A model generated the notes under the pieces. That model ran no database searches. It saw only the letters and a program-made list of their open reading frames with translations, and was not told the DNA's origin. A program made the position numbers and the translations under genes. Shown in pieces: positions 165 through 64,000 of a stretch of 64,000 nucleotides of DNA. Within the stretch, counting starts at the first letter, position 1. Every line of letters begins with the position of its first letter. This DNA comes from an uncultured Desulfobacterales bacterium (lineage in GTDB: Bacteria > Desulfobacterota > DSM-4660 > Desulfatiglandales > HGW-15): assembly GCA_964443135.1 (NCBI GenBank), contig CAYUBQ010000003.1, forward strand, positions 62,174-126,173, written 5' to 3'.

Positions 165-917
165 TCACGGGACGTCGATACGGTGCTTTCTCCGGATCTC
201 CTCCAGCACGCCTTCCGAGGTCATGCCGGAAAGCGCCCGGTTGAAATCGGCCACCACGGCCCGGCAGCCCGGGACCCGTTTCGACACGCCCAGGTGGAGG
301 GGTTTCACCTGGAGGGGCGGTTGGAGGGGCTCGAGACGGCCCGCTCCCCCGGGAATCCGGTGTTCGAGGAGGTGCCTGGCCGTGTAGAGGTCGATGACCG
401 CGAGGTCGATGCGCCCCCTGAGAAGCTTTCGCAGGTTGCTCTCGTCGTTGTCCGTGGGTTCCTTGGTGAGGTAGTCCGCCCGATCGAAGGCGGGGGAGTT
501 CACGTAGCCCCGTACCACCCCGATCCGGTACCCCTCGAGATCCTGCAGGCGGGTGTAGTCGATCTCCGCCTCCACCCGCTTGTAAAAGACCAGGTAGCTC
601 CAGGCGAACGGATTCGAGAGGGCGAAGGTGCGGGCCCGCTCCGCAGAGTGGTAGGCGGGATACATGGCATCGGAGTCCCCCCGCGCGACCCTGCGAAGGA
701 CCCGCGCCCAGGGCATGAAGGTGATCTCCACGCGGTATCCCGCCCGTTCGAAGGCCCGGCGGACGATCTCGGAGGTGAAGCCGAGATTCGGGAGGTCCCT
801 TCCGACGTAAGGCGCCCAGTCGAGCGTGGCCAGGGACACCCGCTCCTCGGTCCGTCCCGGCGGGGCGGAGGAGAGGAGGGCCAGGAGGAGGACGGTCGTG
901 AAAAGGCGTCTGCGCAT
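165..917 (-). CDS. Periplasmic substrate-binding protein, family 3 (PBPb-like)
   Basis: Has the signal peptide MRRRLFTTVLLLALLSSAPP. Length and motif pattern (LDWAPY, GYRIGVVRGY) are typical of amino-acid-type SBPs. Confidence 0.75.
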   Translation of the reverse strand: MRRRLFTTVLLLALLSSAPPGRTEERVSLATLDWAPYVGRDLPNLGFTSEIVRRAFERAGYRVEITFMPWARVLRRVARGDSDAMYPAYHSAERARTFALSNPFAWSYLVFYKRVEAEIDYTRLQDLEGYRIGVVRGYVNSPAFDRADYLTKEPTDNDESNLRKLLRGRIDLAVIDLYTARHLLEHRIPGGAGRLEPLQPPLQVKPLHLGVSKRVPGCRAVVADFNRALSGMTSEGVLEEIRRKHRIDVP

Positions 918-27190: not shown

Positions 27191-27319
27191 CCGGTCACCC
27201 CGCTGATGAAAACCGGGTGTTTTCGTAGGGCGGGGTTTTACACCACGCCGTGCTTGTCGCAAGCCTTGCGGCGGCATGTGAGGCCCACCGCGGGGCATTT
27301 TCACGGTGAACAGTACCCG
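27191..27319 (+). repeat. REP-like dispersed repeat, family 2, copy A
   Basis: About 130 bp clearly alignable with 61520..61660. Shared blocks are CCGGTCACCCCGCTGATGAAAAC, CGTAGGGCGGGGTTTTACACC, GTGCTTGTCGCAAGCCTTGCGGCGGC and TTTTCACGGT. Confidence 0.75.
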
Positions 27320-30568: not shown

Positions 30569-30942
30569 GTCGCTCTCCTTTTCTGCGTCTCCATCCGATT
30601 TTCGATGAAATCCTCGAGGGCCTCGGCGTTGTTGTGCTCCTCGTCGCGCGCGGCGAAGAGCAGGGTCACGTTTTCCCTCCCGGCCCGGGCGGCGAGGCGG
30701 TCCAGGATCTTCTCCTTGGGGGCCGCCCTGAGCTCGGCCCGGTATCGCTGCCTGAACTTGCCCCACCTGCGGGGGTCGTGGTCGAACCAGTTCCGGAGCC
30801 GGCTGCTCGGCGCCAGCTCCTCGAGCCAGTCGGTCAGCGACGCCTCCTCCTTGGAGACGCCTCGGGGCCACAGGGCGTCCACCAGGTAGCGGTCCCCGTC
30901 CTCCGGATCGGGGGGCTCGTAGATCCGTTTCGTCTTCACCAT
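30565..30942 (-). CDS. DUF488-family protein
   Basis: MVKTKRIYEPPDPEDGDRYLVDALWPRGVSKEEASLTDWLEELAPSSRLRNWF... is the canonical DUF488 pattern. Its stop abuts the tpx start. Confidence 0.8.
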   Translation of the reverse strand: MVKTKRIYEPPDPEDGDRYLVDALWPRGVSKEEASLTDWLEELAPSSRLRNWFDHDPRRWGKFRQRYRAELRAAPKEKILDRLAARAGRENVTLLFAARDEEHNNAEALEDFIENRMETQKRRAT

Positions 30943-31424: not shown

Positions 31425-32849
31425 CTACCGGGGCTCGAACTGCCGCTTGGCCGCCAGGAAGGCGGGAAGGTGGCGGGCCAGGTGCCACAGGCTGTGGCGG
31501 TGCTGCCAGAGTCGCCTGCGGAACCTTTTCCGCCAAGCCGGGCTCGTGTAGAAACGCTTCACGTGGCGGTTGTAGAGCGCTTCCAGGATCTCCCGGGAGG
31601 AGATCCCCCCGGGGAGGAACACGAAGTTCAGGCAGTTCATCTTCCGCCAGTCCTCCTCCAGCTCGCCCTGCTCGTGGATGGAGGACCAGACGGGCGCGCC
31701 GGGAAAGGGCGTGAACTTGCTCATGTTCATGTCGTCCAGGTCCAGGGAGAGCACGAAGTCGCCGGTCCTTCGAATCGAGGCCTCGGTCTCGCCCGGGAGG
31801 CCCATCATGAAGAGGCCCTTGACCCGGAGCCCGGCCGACTGAATCCGCCGCACCGTCTCCCGGGCCTCCTCCATTCGGACCCCCGGCTTGTGCAGCTCCA
31901 TCAGGTCCGGGTCCCCCGTTTCGATCCCCACCGAGATCATGAGACAACCCGCCCGTTTCAGCATGCGGAGGAGGTCGTCGTCCGCGTGTCCCACACGGAG
32001 AGCGCAGTTGAAGCGGAGGCCGAGGGGCTTGGACTCGAGCAGCCTGCAGAGCCGGGCGATCCGCCGGCGGTCCATGGTGAACAGATCGTCGTAGAAGTTG
32101 ATGTGGCGGATGCCGAAGCGGGTTCGGAGGTAGCTCATGTGCTCGTAGACGTAGTCGGCGGAGTGGGACCGGAAACCCTGCCGGAACACGGATCGGTCGC
32201 AGTAGGAGCAGCGGTAGACGCAACCCCGGCTGGTGACCATGGTGGCGCCGGGACGGTCGATGTAGCTGAAGAGGGGAAGATGGTACGCCGAAGGAAAGCC
32301 GGCCAGCTTCTCGTAGGCGGGGAAGGGCAGCGCGTCCAGGTCGGGGATGGGTTTCCGGGGCGGGTTGGTGACGGGCCGTCCCCCGTCCCTCCACACCAGG
32401 CCGGGGATGGTGGAGGGGGCGTTTCCGGCGGCCAGCTCGGAGAGGGTGATCTCGCCCTCCCCCAGGCAGAGGCAGTCGATCGCCTGGAACTCACGCAGCA
32501 GCCGCTCCCCCAGGGAGGAGACGTGGACCCCGCCGAAGACCACGCGGGTTCCGGGTGCGGCCCGCTTGATGCGGCAAGCCAGATCGTAACCCTCCAGGAA
32601 TCCCGAGGTGGTGGCCGAGAGCCCCACCAGGTCCGGGGCATGAGACAGGATCGCGCTCGCGTGGCCGTCCGGGATCCGGGGGGCCTCCGGTCCGAGCCCG
32701 TCGTGGACGCGCACGTCGTGGCCGTCGCGCTCGAGGCAGGCGGCCATGGACAGAATTCCCAACGGGGCCATGCGGTTGGCGGTCGGGGTGACGTCTTTTT
32801 TCCCCGGCATCCAGTTGGAACCGGCGGGGTGGACGAGGACGATCCTCAT
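31425..32849 (-). CDS. B12-binding-domain radical SAM protein
   Basis: N-terminal cobalamin-binding-like domain (MRIVLVHPA...LGILSMAA) and the radical SAM motif SRGCVYRCSYCD. Confidence 0.88.
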   Translation of the reverse strand: MRIVLVHPAGSNWMPGKKDVTPTANRMAPLGILSMAACLERDGHDVRVHDGLGPEAPRIPDGHASAILSHAPDLVGLSATTSGFLEGYDLACRIKRAAPGTRVVFGGVHVSSLGERLLREFQAIDCLCLGEGEITLSELAAGNAPSTIPGLVWRDGGRPVTNPPRKPIPDLDALPFPAYEKLAGFPSAYHLPLFSYIDRPGATMVTSRGCVYRCSYCDRSVFRQGFRSHSADYVYEHMSYLRTRFGIRHINFYDDLFTMDRRRIARLCRLLESKPLGLRFNCALRVGHADDDLLRMLKRAGCLMISVGIETGDPDLMELHKPGVRMEEARETVRRIQSAGLRVKGLFMMGLPGETEASIRRTGDFVLSLDLDDMNMSKFTPFPGAPVWSSIHEQGELEEDWRKMNCLNFVFLPGGISSREILEALYNRHVKRFYTSPAWRKRFRRRLWQHRHSLWHLARHLPAFLAAKRQFEPR

Positions 32850-33072
32850 GACGGGCTCCGCTTCCGGGACCTCCGCCGTCCTCGACGGCGGATGAATGGT
32901 CACTGTACCACGATCGAGCACGGGTCGCACGTCCTGATCGGGCGCCCGTGAATGCCGGCCGGGGAACCCGGTTCGGGCGTGGTCGGGGCGCAGGGTGCCC
33001 CTGCGGCAATGGGATGGACATTCGGGCGTGATTTGGGTAGATTCGGAATCGATTGTGCGTCCCTGCCCGGGC

Positions 33073-33393
33073 GATTGACGCATTCGCAGAAACCCGCTCA
33101 CGCGCCGCTGGGGAGGGTATCACCTGTTGAAATCTCGTGGGCAGATCTCGAGGATTCGGGTTTTTTGCGACTCCATCAGGATTGACGCATTCGCAGAAAC
33201 CCGCTCACGCGCCGCTGGGGAGGGTATCACCTGTTGAAATCTCGTGGGCAGATCTCGAGGATTCGGGTTTTTTGCGACTCCATCAGGATTGACGCATTCG
33301 CAGAAACCCGCTCACGCGCCGCTGGGGACGATATCACCTGTTGAAATTCCAGGGGCAGATCTCGAGGATTCGGGTTTTTGCGACGCCATCACG
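33073..33393 (+). repeat. Tandem array of three 107-bp units (family 1): copies 1 and 2 identical, copy 3 diverged
   Basis: Units start at 33073, 33180 and 33287. Each carries TTGAAA-N17-GAGGAT and the core GCAGATCTCGAGGATTCGGGT(5-6)GCGAC. Confidence 0.95.
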
Positions 33394-33418
33394 ATTCTAC
33401 TCAACGGAGGTTGTGGTC

Positions 33419-34591
33419 ATGCCGATAGCGGAACGAATGGTGGGTATGGTGGAAGGCTCTTCCATGATTCGAAAGATGTTCGAGGAGGGGGCCCGGCTCA
33501 AGGCGGAGCACGGAGCCGACAAGGTGTTCGACTTCTCCCTCGGCAACCCGGACCTCCCCCCGCCCCAGGCATTCAAGCGGGCGCTGGTGGAGCTGATCGA
33601 GGATCCTTCCACGAGCCACGGCTACATGCCGAACCAGGGGTACCCGCAGGTGCGGCAGACGGTGTCCGGCTACATCCGGGAGGAGTACGGGGTGGAGATC
33701 CCCCCCGAGCTGATCGTCATGACCGTGGGCGCGGCCGGCGCGCTCAACGACTCCCTGACCGCCCTGATCAACCCGGGGGAGGAGGTCCTCGTGCCGTCCC
33801 CCTACTTCGTGGGATACAACCAGTACGCCTTCCAGGCGGGCGCCGTGGTCAAGACGGCGGAGACGGACCAGGCGTTCCGGCCGGACTTCGAGGCCCTGGA
33901 GCGGGCCGTCACCGAGAGGACGCGGGTCGTGCTCATCAACTCGCCCAACAACCCCACGGGCGTGGTCTACACGGCGGACGAGCTGAAGGGGTTCGGCGAC
34001 CTGCTGGAGCAGGCCAGCCGCAGGTACGGGAAACGCATCTACCTCATCTCCGACGAACCGTACCGGAAGATCGCCTACGACGTGGAGGTGCCGTCCGTGT
34101 TTCAGGCCTACCCCCACTCCATCCTGGTCACCTCCTACTCCAAGGAGCTGTCCCTGGCCGGGGAGCGCATCGGCTACCTGGCCGTCAACCCGGCGGCCGA
34201 GGACGCGGCCCAGGTGGCGGCCGCAGCGGCGGTCTCGAACACCATGCTCTACGTCAACGCCCCCAGCCTGTTCCAGCTGGCCATCGCAAAGGTCATGGGA
34301 ATCTCCGTGGACGTCTCCATCTACCGAAGGCGGCGCGACCTTCTCTGTGAGGGGCTCCGAAAGGCGGGGTACGTGTTCGTGGAGCCGAAGGGGGCGTTCT
34401 ACCTGTTCCCCGAGACGCCCATCGAGGACGACGTGGAGTTCTGCCGAATCCTGATGGAGGAGCTCATCCTGGCGGTGCCGGGAAGCGGCTTCGGCAGGGG
34501 CGGCCATTTCCGGCTCTCCTACGCCGTGCCGGATCAGGCCATATCCGGCGCCATGGAGGGGTTTGTGCGGGCCGTGGACAGGGCGTCCTGA
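33419..34591 (+). CDS. Class I/II pyridoxal-phosphate-dependent aminotransferase (aspartate-aminotransferase-like)
   Basis: DFSLGNPD, NSPNNPTG and SYSKELSLAGERIGY (PLP Lys) motifs. GGAGG RBS. Confidence 0.9.
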   Translation: MPIAERMVGMVEGSSMIRKMFEEGARLKAEHGADKVFDFSLGNPDLPPPQAFKRALVELIEDPSTSHGYMPNQGYPQVRQTVSGYIREEYGVEIPPELIVMTVGAAGALNDSLTALINPGEEVLVPSPYFVGYNQYAFQAGAVVKTAETDQAFRPDFEALERAVTERTRVVLINSPNNPTGVVYTADELKGFGDLLEQASRRYGKRIYLISDEPYRKIAYDVEVPSVFQAYPHSILVTSYSKELSLAGERIGYLAVNPAAEDAAQVAAAAAVSNTMLYVNAPSLFQLAIAKVMGISVDVSIYRRRRDLLCEGLRKAGYVFVEPKGAFYLFPETPIEDDVEFCRILMEELILAVPGSGFGRGGHFRLSYAVPDQAISGAMEGFVRAVDRAS

Positions 34592-34623
34592 TCGAAGACG
34601 ATCGCATCGGAGCGGTGAGTGGA

Positions 34624-34848
34624 ATGGACGCCGATCTCCTGCTGTCGGAGGCCGTCGAAGGCGTTCGGCGGAGGCACGGGCTCGGCCGACGGATCTGCCT
34701 GGGGTACGAGCGGCCTCCGGAGCGTTCGGTGGACGGGACCATGACCTGCCCGAGGTGCGGCGGTCTTCTGGACTACACCGTTTCCTCCTACGACGGCGCC
34801 ACCCGCGGTCGGTGCCGGACGAGCGGTTGCCTCCGCTGGACCGAGTGA
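34624..34848 (+). CDS. Small zinc-ribbon protein
   Basis: MDADLLLSEAVEGVRRRHG...CPRCGG...CRTSGC. A GGAG lies 11 nt upstream. An alternative GTG start is at 34615. Confidence 0.4.
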   Translation: MDADLLLSEAVEGVRRRHGLGRRICLGYERPPERSVDGTMTCPRCGGLLDYTVSSYDGATRGRCRTSGCLRWTE

Positions 34849-35011
34849 GATGCTACACCCGGACGGCGAGGGTAGGTCTCGAGATCTTCTCATGGTTCCC
34901 ATGGCTGCCTCCCTGCGTTCTTCCCGGTCCGTTCCGACCCTCACAGGCTGGTCTCGACGGGGCGCCGGGTCGAGATCGGGGCACTACCTCGAAAATCCCG
35001 CACGCTTTTCC

Positions 35012-56598: not shown

Positions 56599-56613
56599 TT
56601 CCCGCTGTCTCCT

Positions 56614-56722
56614 GATTGACGGATTCGCAACAACCCGCTCACCCGCCGCTGGAAACGCTATAACCCGTTGACATTACCTGGGCAGATCTCGAGGTTGAGG
56701 CCTTTTTACGACTCCTTCCTGA
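56614..56722 (+). repeat. Dispersed copy of the 107-bp family-1 unit
   Basis: GATTGACGGATTCGCAACAACCCGCTCACCCGCCGCTGG...GTTGACATTACCTGGGCAGATCTCGAGGTTGAGGCCTTTTTACGACTCC. Carries TTGACA-N17-GAGGTT. Confidence 0.85.
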
Positions 56723-57248
56723 TTCGAGCGGGGGCGTCCTCCCGGAGCGGAGGTGCGGCCGGGTGTCGGGTCGTCGGCCCGGTCGCCTCACCCGTTCTCT
56801 CCCGGTCGAAGGCCCGCCGGGATCGGACCGGGATGTATCCCGCTTCCGAAACCGGAAGGAGGGTCCGGTGCCCGGACCCGCTGGAGATCCGTTCCAACGG
56901 TCCACGGCCGGATCGAGCAGGGAACCGGGGAACGGGAGAGAGCCTTCTCGAGGACTGCTGCGGGACCGGTTACGATGCAACCGGCGGGAAAAGACGGGGC
57001 CATGGACGCACGATGGCTTCGTTTTCGAAAGGCGGATGTCTCCGAGCTGTTCATGCTGTTCTCCAGGCGCGCTGCCGCAGCGGCCATGAGAATCGTGCCC
57101 CGTTCCTGTATAGGGCATCGACGGCGAATTTGCAACCGGCTTCGCATCCCGAGAAAGGAGATGCATCAACCATCGAAATGGGATAGGATCTCTCTACCCC
57201 CCCTGCAAAGAGCTTCCACAGGACGAAATCGGAAAGAGGAGGAAAGGG

Positions 57249-61339: not shown

Positions 61340-61385
61340 CGTTTCGGTCCTCCCAACGTGCCCGAAGCTCGAAATGACGCGGATA

Positions 61386-61497
61386 CCGGTGGAGTCCCAA
61401 AAAGCCCGAAGCTTCGAGATCGTCCCTGGAATATCAACAGCTCCAGCGTTTCCGGAGGCGGGTGAGCGGGCTTTTGCGAATCCGTCGGTACCCAAAC
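61386..61497 (-). repeat. Dispersed copy of the 107-bp family-1 unit (reverse orientation)
   Basis: The reverse complement reads ACGGATTCGCAAAAGCCCGCTCACCCGCCTCCGGAAACGCTGGAGCTGTTGATATTCCAGGGACGATCTCGAAGCTTCGGGCTTTTTGGGACTCC. Confidence 0.85.
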
Positions 61498-61519: not shown

Positions 61520-61660
61520 CCGGTCACCCCCGCTGATGAAAACGGGTGTCGTAGGGCGGGGTTTTACACCCCGTCGTGCTTGTCGCAAGCCTTGCGGCGG
61601 CGTGTGAAATGCCGCCCTACGCCCGGACCACCGAGGGGCTTTTTCACGGTAAAGGGTGCT
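61520..61660 (+). repeat. REP-like dispersed repeat, family 2, copy B
   Basis: Aligns with 27191..27319. Contains the 10-bp inverted repeat CGTAGGGCGG (61550..61559) / CCGCCCTACG (61612..61621). Confidence 0.75.
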
Positions 61661-64000
61661 ACCCGGATCGGACCAGGCCGTGCAGGTTCTCCATCAAGGA
61701 ATCCAACTCGTCTTCCCGGAAGCAGTACAGCAGGGTGGTGTGCGGCTGCCTCATGGCGCGCACCCCGTCGCGGACGTCCGCGCCGTCCACCAGCACGTCA
61801 CGGATCATCTGGGCCAGCTCCTGGAAGTCCGGCTCGCCCATGCCGAAGCGGGTCATCTCGGCCGCGCCCATGCGAAGGGCCCCCGAGGCCGTGAAGCCCT
61901 CCTCCTCAGGGGTCGCCTGGTAGTTGCAGATGATGTTGTTGTCCTCCAGTGCGGATGCGGCCTCGGGCCCTTTTCCGTAGCCCACGCGGACCACGACCTG
62001 GTGGGTCTCGGTGAACCCCTCGTCCGGATCGCCGGCCACGTCCAGGCCGCAGTCGTTCAGGGCCCGCGCAAAGGCCCGGGCGTTGGCGATCACACGGGGC
62101 TGGTACTCGTCCTTGAACCGGTTCATCTCGTAGGCGGCCATGAGAAGCCCCAGCATGGTGCCCAGGTGATGGTTGGAGACCGAACCGGGGAAGGTCCGCG
62201 CGGCCACCGACTCCCAGAGGGCGTAGCGCTCCTCCTCTTCCTGAAGTCGGGTCGCCGCGATGCCCCGCTGGGTGCCGAAAAAGGTCTTGTGGGTGGAGCC
62301 GGTGACCAGGTCGGCCCCTTCCCGGAAGGGTTCCTGGAAGTGGGGTCCCGCCAGGCCGAGAACGTGGGCCATGTCGTACATCACCACCGCGTCGATGCCG
62401 CTCTCGTCGAGGAATCGGCGAACGGCCTCCACGGGCTCCCGGCAGAGGACCATGCTCTTCCCGAAGATGATGAGCCGGGGGCGCACCTCGTCGATGCGCT
62501 CGAGGGTCGCCTGCACGTCCACGCGGTACGGGTTGTGGGGGAGGACGGGGAAGGGGACCACGGCGGGCCGTTCGGTCCGGGGGTCCCGTGCCACGAAGTC
62601 CCGGAGCGCGCCCATGGGCTGGGAGCTCAGGTGGCCCCCCTTGGCGATGTGGTGGTTCATGACCGGTGCGATGCGCCGGGGCTCCCGCCTCGGGTCGTCC
62701 CGGTTCAGGTACTGCATCATGGCGCTGAAGACGGCGGTGTTGGCCATCTGCCCGCTGATCAGCCGGGTCTCCAGCTCGGTGCAGCCGAGAAAGAGGGCCA
62801 GCTCCCGCTCGAGGAGCCGTTCGACGCGGGCGATGAACTCCGTACCCTGGTAGTAGAACACCTCCGTGTCGTAAAAGGCGCGGACCTTGCGGTGCTCGGC
62901 GTAGCGGAACGAGGGATCCATGATGGAGAGGAGCCGGACCATGGGCGATGGGGTCATCTCGGAGGGGATCAGGTTGATGCATTCCCTCTGACGCCAGACC
63001 GTGTTCTCGACGGCCTCCTCGAGGAGCTTCCGGGCCGAGGTCGCGGCCGGCTCGGGCTCGGCAGGTTCGGCGCCCGCCACGATGGGCCGGGCATAGGGCG
63101 GGGCGTCGTTCCTGAGGTGGTAGGGGACGACCTTCGCCTCGACGGTGCGGCCCCGGACCTCGACGGTCACCTCGTCGTCCTCCAGGAGGTCCGCATCGAT
63201 GTAGGCCAGGCCCAGCCCCCGAAGCCCGTGCTCTTCGAGCTGGACCGAGGCGAGCCCTTCTCCTCCCACCTTCCAGTAGGGAACCATGGTGCCGCTGGTC
63301 ACCCAGCCCACGTGCCCGCCGTGCCGAAAGACCCGGGAGCCCTCCCGGGCCACGCCCCTCCCGGTCACGGCCAGGGGGCGGACGATGCGGGGGAGATCGG
63401 CGATCCCGGAGTAGTCCCGGACCAGGATGCGGCCGCGCGCCTCGAACTGGCGGAGGAGGATCTCCCTTCCCACGAACGCCCCCTTGAGGGGACTGAAGCT
63501 CACGGCGAAGCGGGCCAGGGGGCAGGCCATGATGGGGATCTCCCGGCCTTCCGGGTCCGTTCCCAGCTCGTGCCCGTAGAGTGGAAGCCCCGCCTCGAGG
63601 CGCAGGGTGTCCCGGGCGCCCAGTCCCACGGGGGAGGCGCCGTGCTCCAGCAGGAGGTCCCAGACGAGGGGGGCCGCCTCGGAGGGCAGGAACAGCTCGA
63701 AGCAGACGGGCTCCCCGGTGTACCCGGTCCGGGCCGTCTGAACCTCGTGACCCTGGATCGTCACCGTGCCCACGGCGTTCCGCATGGGCTCGGGGAGGTC
63801 GCCTGCTTCGACCAGCGGCACCAGGATGTCGCGGGAGAGGGGGCCCTGCAGGGCCAGCATGGCGATCTCGGCGGTCCGGTCCTCGAGCTCGACCCCGTCG
63901 AATGCGGCGGCGGCGGACCGGAGATGGGCCCAGTCCTTGTCCTTGTTGGACGCGTTCACCACCAGGAGAAAGGCGTCCTCCTCGAACCGGTAGAGGTAGG
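61659..64000 (-). CDS. Fusion protein: aminomethyltransferase (GcvT) N-terminal part plus serine-hydroxymethyltransferase-like C-terminal part (5' end outside the window)
   Basis: GcvT motifs (LALQGP, ARTGYTGE, ARDTLRLEAGL), a linker AGAEPAEPEPAATS, then SHMT-like INLIPSEMTPSP, GGHLSS and GSTHKTFFGTQRG. The frame is still open at 64000. Confidence 0.85.
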   Translation of the reverse strand, partial: YLYRFEEDAFLLVVNASNKDKDWAHLRSAAAAFDGVELEDRTAEIAMLALQGPLSRDILVPLVEAGDLPEPMRNAVGTVTIQGHEVQTARTGYTGEPVCFELFLPSEAAPLVWDLLLEHGASPVGLGARDTLRLEAGLPLYGHELGTDPEGREIPIMACPLARFAVSFSPLKGAFVGREILLRQFEARGRILVRDYSGIADLPRIVRPLAVTGRGVAREGSRVFRHGGHVGWVTSGTMVPYWKVGGEGLASVQLEEHGLRGLGLAYIDADLLEDDEVTVEVRGRTVEAKVVPYHLRNDAPPYARPIVAGAEPAEPEPAATSARKLLEEAVENTVWRQRECINLIPSEMTPSPMVRLLSIMDPSFRYAEHRKVRAFYDTEVFYYQGTEFIARVERLLERELALFLGCTELETRLISGQMANTAVFSAMMQYLNRDDPRREPRRIAPVMNHHIAKGGHLSSQPMGALRDFVARDPRTERPAVVPFPVLPHNPYRVDVQATLERIDEVRPRLIIFGKSMVLCREPVEAVRRFLDESGIDAVVMYDMAHVLGLAGPHFQEPFREGADLVTGSTHKTFFGTQRGIAATRLQEEEERYALWESVAARTFPGSVSNHHLGTMLGLLMAAYEMNRFKDEYQPRVIANARAFARALNDCGLDVAGDPDEGFTETHQVVVRVGYGKGPEAASALEDNNIICNYQATPEEEGFTASGALRMGAAEMTRFGMGEPDFQELAQMIRDVLVDGADVRDGVRAMRQPHTTLLYCFREDELDSLMENLHGLVRSG

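Follow-up and report, generated by a model that had tools for sequence, protein, structure and literature searches.

A head-to-tail array of probable MITE copies upstream of an aminotransferase gene in an uncultured Desulfobacterales bacterium

Three 107-bp units that precede an aminotransferase gene in an uncultured Desulfobacterales bacterium are very probably copies of a non-autonomous DNA transposon (MITE), arrayed head-to-tail in the leader of that gene, and thus ordinary selfish DNA. They were found in a window of 64,000 nucleotides, by which we mean the whole stretch of DNA analysed; positions refer to this window unless a locus outside it (L numbers) is named. MITEs are defined as small elements with terminal inverted repeats (TIRs) and a target duplication, lacking a transposase gene and occurring in many dispersed copies (PMC3184786). 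The element described here was small, had no transposase ORF, ended in TIRs, was flanked by a target-site duplication and was represented by dispersed copies and by both filled and empty sites. Its size, 99-103 bp for the core, lies below the 200-400 bp under which MITEs usually fall. It is a new, array-prone MITE family in uncultured high-GC Desulfobacterales.

Anatomy of the array and its locus

Tandem Repeats Finder, run on the whole window, detected a repeat at 33073-33396 with a period of 107, 3.0 copies, 95% matches and a score of 585; the next-best tandem repeat in the window scored 49. A 26-mer from the unit occurred three times in the window, compared with 0.00 expected in shuffles. 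The first-pass annotation had described three head-to-tail units of 107 bp, the first two the same base for base and the third differing in short patches, including T5 instead of T6, and the assembled sequence agreed with this in full. Copies 1 and 2 were identical at 107 of 107 positions, and copy 3 was 92.5% identical to them, with 8 differences. The very recent duplication that the annotation had read from the identity of copies 1 and 2 stands as an implication of that identity. It was also right to exclude a coding sequence and a CRISPR array. The 107-bp period is not divisible by 3, and the units abut with a 6-bp junction only, leaving no unique spacers. Stops occur in two of the three forward frames, and a transposase gene would need to be far longer than the element.

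The natural phase of the repeat is a 6-mer followed by a core. Each unit consists of a 101-bp core (GACGCATTCGC...GCGACTCCATC) and a 6-bp target-site duplication, so that one core and one 6-mer add up to the 107-bp period exactly. The four 6-mers of the array were related and approximately alike (Table 1).

Table 1. Positions of the array, of its neighbouring features and of selected family members
Feature	Position	Strand	Basis or remark
Divergent B12-binding radical SAM gene	31425-32849	-	Pfam
Site A, empty in the window (single GAACCC)	32964-32969	+	Filled in L002: AAATCC, reversed element, AAATCC
Sigma-70-like promoter TGGACA-17-TAGATT, upstream of array	33015-33043	+	Sole site passing the promoter scan
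Site B, filled in the window (array with four related 6-mers)			Empty in L002: single AGGATC
Left flanking 6-mer GCGATT, duplicated-target copy	33071-33076	+	Sequence; single AGGATC at the empty site of L002
MITE core copy 1, 101 bp, TIRs GACGCATTCGCAGAAA / (reverse complement) GATGGAGTCGCAAAAA	33077-33177	+	
Weak terminator-like hairpin and T-run in unit 1, again at 33254 and 33361	33147-33170	+	5-bp stem, consensus match only
Junction 6-mer AGGATT	33178-33183	+	Sequence
MITE core copy 2, same sequence as copy 1	33184-33284	+	
Junction 6-mer AGGATT	33285-33290	+	Sequence
MITE core copy 3, 100 bp, nearer the family consensus than copies 1 and 2	33291-33390	+	
Right flanking 6-mer ACGATT	33391-33396	+	Sequence
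GGAGG ribosome-binding site of the aminotransferase gene	33406-33410	+	Sequence
Class I/II aminotransferase gene, leader most likely bearing the array	33419-34591	+	Pfam PF00155, E=1.6e-55
Solo family copy, core 56618-56718, perfect CTGATT/CTGATT flanks, 13 nt upstream of a minus-strand gene start	56612-56724	+	Self-comparison match at 56614-56718, 80% identity
Solo family copy, core 61388-61486, flanks GGTACC/GGTATC	61382-61492	-	Self-comparison match at 61390-61486, ~77% identity
Two-unit array, outer 6-mers match, inner junction differs	L103:6215-6432		AGGAGT / ACTGTT / AGGAGT
Two-unit array, outer 6-mers match, inner junction differs	L090:314-531		AGGTTT / AAGCTT / AGGTTT
Two-unit array, outer 6-mers match, inner junction differs	L119:542-757		TGTTTT / TTGATT / TGTCTT

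The array is situated inside a divergent intergenic region of 570 bp. An aminotransferase gene had been placed directly downstream, and Pfam confirmed this and assigned it to class I/II. Pfam identified no transposase domain among the 42 genes of the window, and the functions encoded in this region are those of ordinary metabolism. Apart from the window, exactly this aminotransferase was encoded in only one public record, a 1647-bp contig (L001) from Logan SRR15425355, which represents the same locus in an independent data set and starts inside copy 3 (window 33345). This break, together with the many family copies at contig ends, is the usual sign of an assembly interrupted by repeats. A search of other assemblies for an exact match to the radical SAM protein retrieved no record.

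The best orthologous locus was L002 (MAG CAYVVQ01), with an aminotransferase 93% identical to that of the window. The TGGACA-17-TAGATT site is conserved there (2917-2945) and is recognisable in L005 and L007, all of them relatives without the array. Judging from its sequence and conservation, it is probably the native promoter of the aminotransferase gene. Since this conserved promoter is located upstream of the array, the array most likely lies between the native promoter and the ribosome-binding site. The whole of it would then be transcribed as additional 5′ leader, most likely lengthening the leader by 321 nt (327 nt if one duplicated 6-mer is included).

Two other observations concern the genes of the window. 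About 400 bp directly 3′ of the aminotransferase gene (34601-35001) are missing from L002, and this segment holds a small ORF (~34742-34849) for a zinc-ribbon-like peptide (CPRC...C-x5-C). A long minus-strand ORF (61659-63962) combined GCV_T (glycine-cleavage T-protein) with a full serine hydroxymethyltransferase domain and is either an unusual fusion or an ORF-call artefact.

Termini, target sites and dispersal of the family

Family members were retrieved with a 20-base degenerate pattern common to the known copies, followed by a profile search (nhmmer). The pattern matched 73 metagenome stretches, nearly all from a single sample (Ga0207797), and none of the viral contigs. With nhmmer, about 120 copies were recovered in 70 loci, in both orientations, and about 115 unit copies lay outside this window. 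Mean identity within the family was 78%, and copies were frequently found at contig ends. The element had no similarity in Rfam, plasmid or phage collections. A synteny comparison of the window with the metagenome contigs, looking for presence or absence at the two solo sites of the window (Table 1), found nothing.

We aligned 72 full-length copies with their flanks. Core length was 99-103 nt (mode 101), with the core starting in GACGCATTCGCAAAAACCCG and ending in CGGGCTTTTTGCGACTCCATC; this start and end constitute imperfect TIRs of about 20 nt, of the form GAYGSAKTCGCAAAAA(G)CCCG. The degenerate terminus GAYGSAKTCGCAAAAA matched both ends of all five copies in the window, and these ends made up 10 of its 11 matches there, compared with 0.12 expected by chance. 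Conservation in the left half of the element (alignment columns 13-36) was partly forced by the retrieval pattern. An internal box, GGCAGATCTC (columns 72-81; window 33141-33150 in copy 1), which the pattern did not impose, showed at least 90% conservation. It contains a GATC/AGATCT palindrome and may be a protein-binding or methylation site.

The 6-mers flanking the 72 copies were identical at 4.58 of 6 positions, compared with 3.22 in permuted controls (maximum 3.47), and 25 of the 72 pairs were perfect. The duplication signal was lost when the register was shifted. An unbiased scan of the alignment found the strongest mutual information in identities between columns 1-4 and 112-115. A preference for the target is indicated by the asymmetric consensus common to the 6-mers, A-N-G-W-T-T.

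Comparison with L002 was informative on mobility. There, a single copy in inverted orientation lies within the same intergenic region, some 100 bp farther upstream, and the position of the window array holds no unit. Without the elements, the intergenic regions of the window and L002 align throughout. The two loci are therefore reciprocally filled and empty at two sites with a duplicated target (sites A and B, Table 1), which shows mobility directly.

No autonomous IS with matching ends was detected among the window genes or, by a blastn-short end search, in 1.1 Mb of sequence. The orphan left and right ends encountered in this 1.1 Mb were truncated or internally deleted copies, and its all-against-all comparison yielded no other multi-copy segment of at least 350 bp. 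We suggest that a transposase encoded elsewhere, probably of the DDE type, would mobilise the 101-bp core in trans by its ~20-bp TIRs, and that staggered cuts at the asymmetric 6-bp target would lead to duplication of the target. The element ends also contain a TTCGCAAAAA motif, on account of which an ISL3-like origin was considered. ISL3 makes 8-bp duplications as opposed to the 6 bp seen here, and such an origin is not claimed.

Several fragments and a further repeat were noted alongside the family. An orphan right-end-like fragment (TTTCTGCGTCTCCATC followed by CGATTT) at window 30577-30601, beside a minus-strand gene start, may be what remains of an old insertion or may match by chance. 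L125 (~780-850, minus strand) holds a derivative of about 60 nt that has an internal deletion and has kept both termini; with its near-perfect hairpin and the T-run behind it (GCAAAAGCCCGCTC...GAGCGGGCCTTTTGC), it is terminator-like. Window 61543-61588 and 27223-27262 hold a second dispersed repeat, about 45 nt long and unrelated to the MITE (GTTTTACACCCCGYCGTGCTTGTCGCAA...), which is also present at L141:1718-1760, L090:271-313, L112:2135-2177 and 1109-1139, and L119:2270-2309. This repeat often has a MITE copy no more than about 100 bp away, and at its ends it is similar to a CRISPR repeat or a REP-like palindrome.

Regulatory and assembly-based alternatives

The first-pass annotation had taken the unit to be a promoter/operator module of the aminotransferase gene and its triplication to be a dial of expression by copy number. 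The features on which this was built are all present: TTGAAA-N17-GAGGAT in each unit, its -10 hexamer having the key A2 and T6, the near-palindromic core AGATCTCGAGGAT, the GGAGG ribosome-binding site and the ATG at 33419, with the array directly upstream of the gene. Nevertheless, the hexamer pair agrees with the sigma-70 consensus at only 8 of 12 positions and was not reported by the promoter scan, which instead passed the site upstream of the array, and the -10-like hexamer varies over the family (GAGGCT, AAGGCT, AAAGCT). The unit is also dispersed and mobile, with TIRs and a 6-bp target-site duplication, and lacks any orientation bias. L002 and four other relatives are without the unit at this position, yet they have kept the TGGACA-17-TAGATT block. 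A locus-specific promoter or operator, tripled to tune the aminotransferase, is thus very unlikely, and the promoter part of the proposed dial found no support. Its other part, variability in copy number, is plausible: copy number clearly shifts over short time scales, with 14 arrays of two to three units in the family and several neighbouring units 96-100% identical.

Orientation and folding bear on an RNA-based alternative, in which the leader would carry three copies of a small RNA gene or of a structured element acting in cis as a tandem riboswitch or attenuator. Upstream of genes, 42 copies were sense and 46 antisense, and downstream of genes 26 were sense and 17 antisense; by type, 17 intergenic regions were divergent, 2 convergent and 29 co-directional, so that promoter-side regions were favoured. 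These counts come from a rough GC-frame gene caller in which genes were barred from overlapping elements, which makes distances to gene starts unreliable. An RNA acting on downstream genes sits poorly with equal sense and antisense frequencies there and with copies at 3′ ends, and a target-site duplication is foreign to RNA motifs. Its termini can pair into a long hairpin, and every unit has a weak hairpin with a U-run. In single-sequence folds of both strands, only copy 3 on the plus strand was notable (z = -3.0), and its substitutions preserve the inner stem, but copy 1 had z = -0.2. Rfam returned nothing at the gathering threshold over the window, nor any relevant match over 32800-33500 at E <= 10, and RNAalifold, applied to 71 copies, gave essentially no consensus fold (-3.75 kcal/mol). 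A hand-drawn structure with a terminal helix and an inner stem was 87% paired and the sequences were compatible with it. Columns 43-65 do covary (GC 27, AU 16, CG 6, UG 6), whereas a second covarying pair, columns 11-33, is two-state and may simply track subfamilies. In each helix a single pair truly covaries, and the counts of G-U against C-A favour neither strand. The terminal helix was 88.9% complementary over 71 copies with its mismatches uncompensated, and so resembles an inverted repeat that a protein would recognise at the level of DNA. With real covariation confined to columns 43-65, the hand-drawn helix was rejected as an RNA motif, and we regard the RNA explanation as extremely unlikely. 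It is equally hard to credit that the assembler expanded a single MITE insertion. Short-read graphs cannot count identical 107-bp units such as copies 1 and 2, and the break of the Logan contig inside copy 3 and the family copies at contig ends would suit such an artefact. However, copy 3 differs at 8 positions, which requires at least two distinct adjacent units, and 13 other arrays, another triplet among them, were present in independently assembled contigs.

The interpretation as a MITE is not free of conflicting evidence. Neither the conservation of the GGCAGATCTC box nor the covariation of columns 43-65 is needed by a purely selfish element. Recent amplification from a few master copies, together with subfamily structure, could explain both. 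The hairpin and U-run in each unit could cause attenuation and in this way set expression.

Array formation and comparison with known systems

The family occupied 104 insertion sites, 90 of them solo and 14 with arrays (12 doublets and 2 triplets), and a quarter of the copies lie in arrays. All 14 arrays were head-to-tail. Identity between array neighbours was bimodal. Near-identical neighbours were seen in the window (copies 1 and 2, 100%), L147 (99%), L132 (97%) and L103 (96%), and diverged ones in L119 (76%), L090 (74%) and L091 (63%), the latter as far apart as random members of the family. The same 6-mer was present throughout the array in L132, L126, L118, L094, L109, L147a and L153, and approximately so in the window. 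In three two-unit arrays (L103, L090 and L119) the outer 6-mers matched and the inner junction differed (Table 1), a pattern of 6-mers that suggests transposition of these arrays as composites.

Near-identical neighbours point to local duplication, and diverged neighbours, or a dimer with a single outer duplication, to independent insertion or to a dimer moving as a unit. Arrays might therefore arise by three routes. The duplicated target beside a resident copy would again be a preferred and oriented target, so that a second insertion would come to lie head-to-tail with the first. Unequal exchange or slippage could then add to or reduce the number of adjacent copies. Finally, the outer left and outer right ends could be used together, in which case a dimer would move as one unit. 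In the window, a near-consensus copy 3 would have come to stand beside a derived copy, and the derived copy would then have been duplicated very recently to give copies 1 and 2.

A stronger proposal is that the transposition chemistry itself forms the arrays: the target would be regenerated on both sides, copies would stack and dimers would move as composites, and the number of units could set expression of the aminotransferase. We consider this doubtful. If true, a bacterial MITE would be seeding MIRU-like variable-number minisatellites in 5′ leaders, which would link transposition to the birth of VNTRs. The origin of minisatellites from MITEs has been described in eukaryotes and for MIRUs; with bacterial MITEs, to our knowledge, it has received little discussion. 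The head-to-tail arrays and the dimers with a single outer duplication provide a clean natural data set on this process.

Recognising the unit as selfish DNA averts its mis-annotation as a promoter or RNA element. This abundant and previously unannotated repeat family fragments metagenome assemblies of uncultured high-GC Desulfobacterales. Its consensus can be used for masking and scaffolding genomes and as a strain-typing (VNTR) marker.

Known bacterial MITEs such as the Correia elements (CREE) of Neisseria, RUP of Streptococcus pneumoniae and MITEAba12 resemble the element in their size of about 100 bp, TIRs, target-site duplication and lack of coding capacity. Like it, they are represented by numerous intergenic copies, in either orientation and often near gene starts, and would form a long hairpin if transcribed. 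Correia and RUP duplicate TA, unlike the asymmetric 6-bp A-N-G-W-T-T duplicated here. Head-to-tail arrays are not discussed in a 2024 review of prokaryotic MITEs, in which the word "tandem" occurs 0 times.

REP and REPIN sequences, which are associated with RAYT transposases (IS200/IS605-like), are also abundant intergenic repeats of about 100 bp with two inverted arms, and are clustered. REPINs are doublets of short palindromic REPs inserted without target-site duplication. In contrast, the element duplicates 6 bp of target, its termini are not palindromic, its interior is unique and conserved, and the units of its clusters all point the same way instead of alternating, which separates it from this class. 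Tandem IS dimers, as in (IS30)2 and the IS21 and IS911 junctions, offer an analogy to the arrays, in that ends abut head-to-tail a few bp apart and the outer ends transpose composites. In those autonomous IS elements the junctions are short-lived intermediates of high reactivity, whereas in the arrays described here the junctions persist, their spacer has the length of the target duplication and the units are non-autonomous.

MIRUs are units of 40-100 bp that occur both dispersed between genes and in head-to-tail arrays of variable number, with filled and empty sites; they are flanked by short direct repeats, end in imperfect TIRs and are transcribed within neighbouring mRNAs (PMC3184786). They differ from the element in host phylum, in their unrelated sequence and in direct repeats of 4 bp instead of 6 bp. 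They are also oriented with operons and contain small ORFs that overlap neighbouring genes, whereas the element showed unbiased orientation and a period that does not preserve a reading frame. Dispersed as single units and also arranged head-to-tail in arrays of two to three, the element finds in MIRUs its functionally closest likeness, since these are MITE-like, both dispersed and tandem, and the basis of MIRU-VNTR typing.
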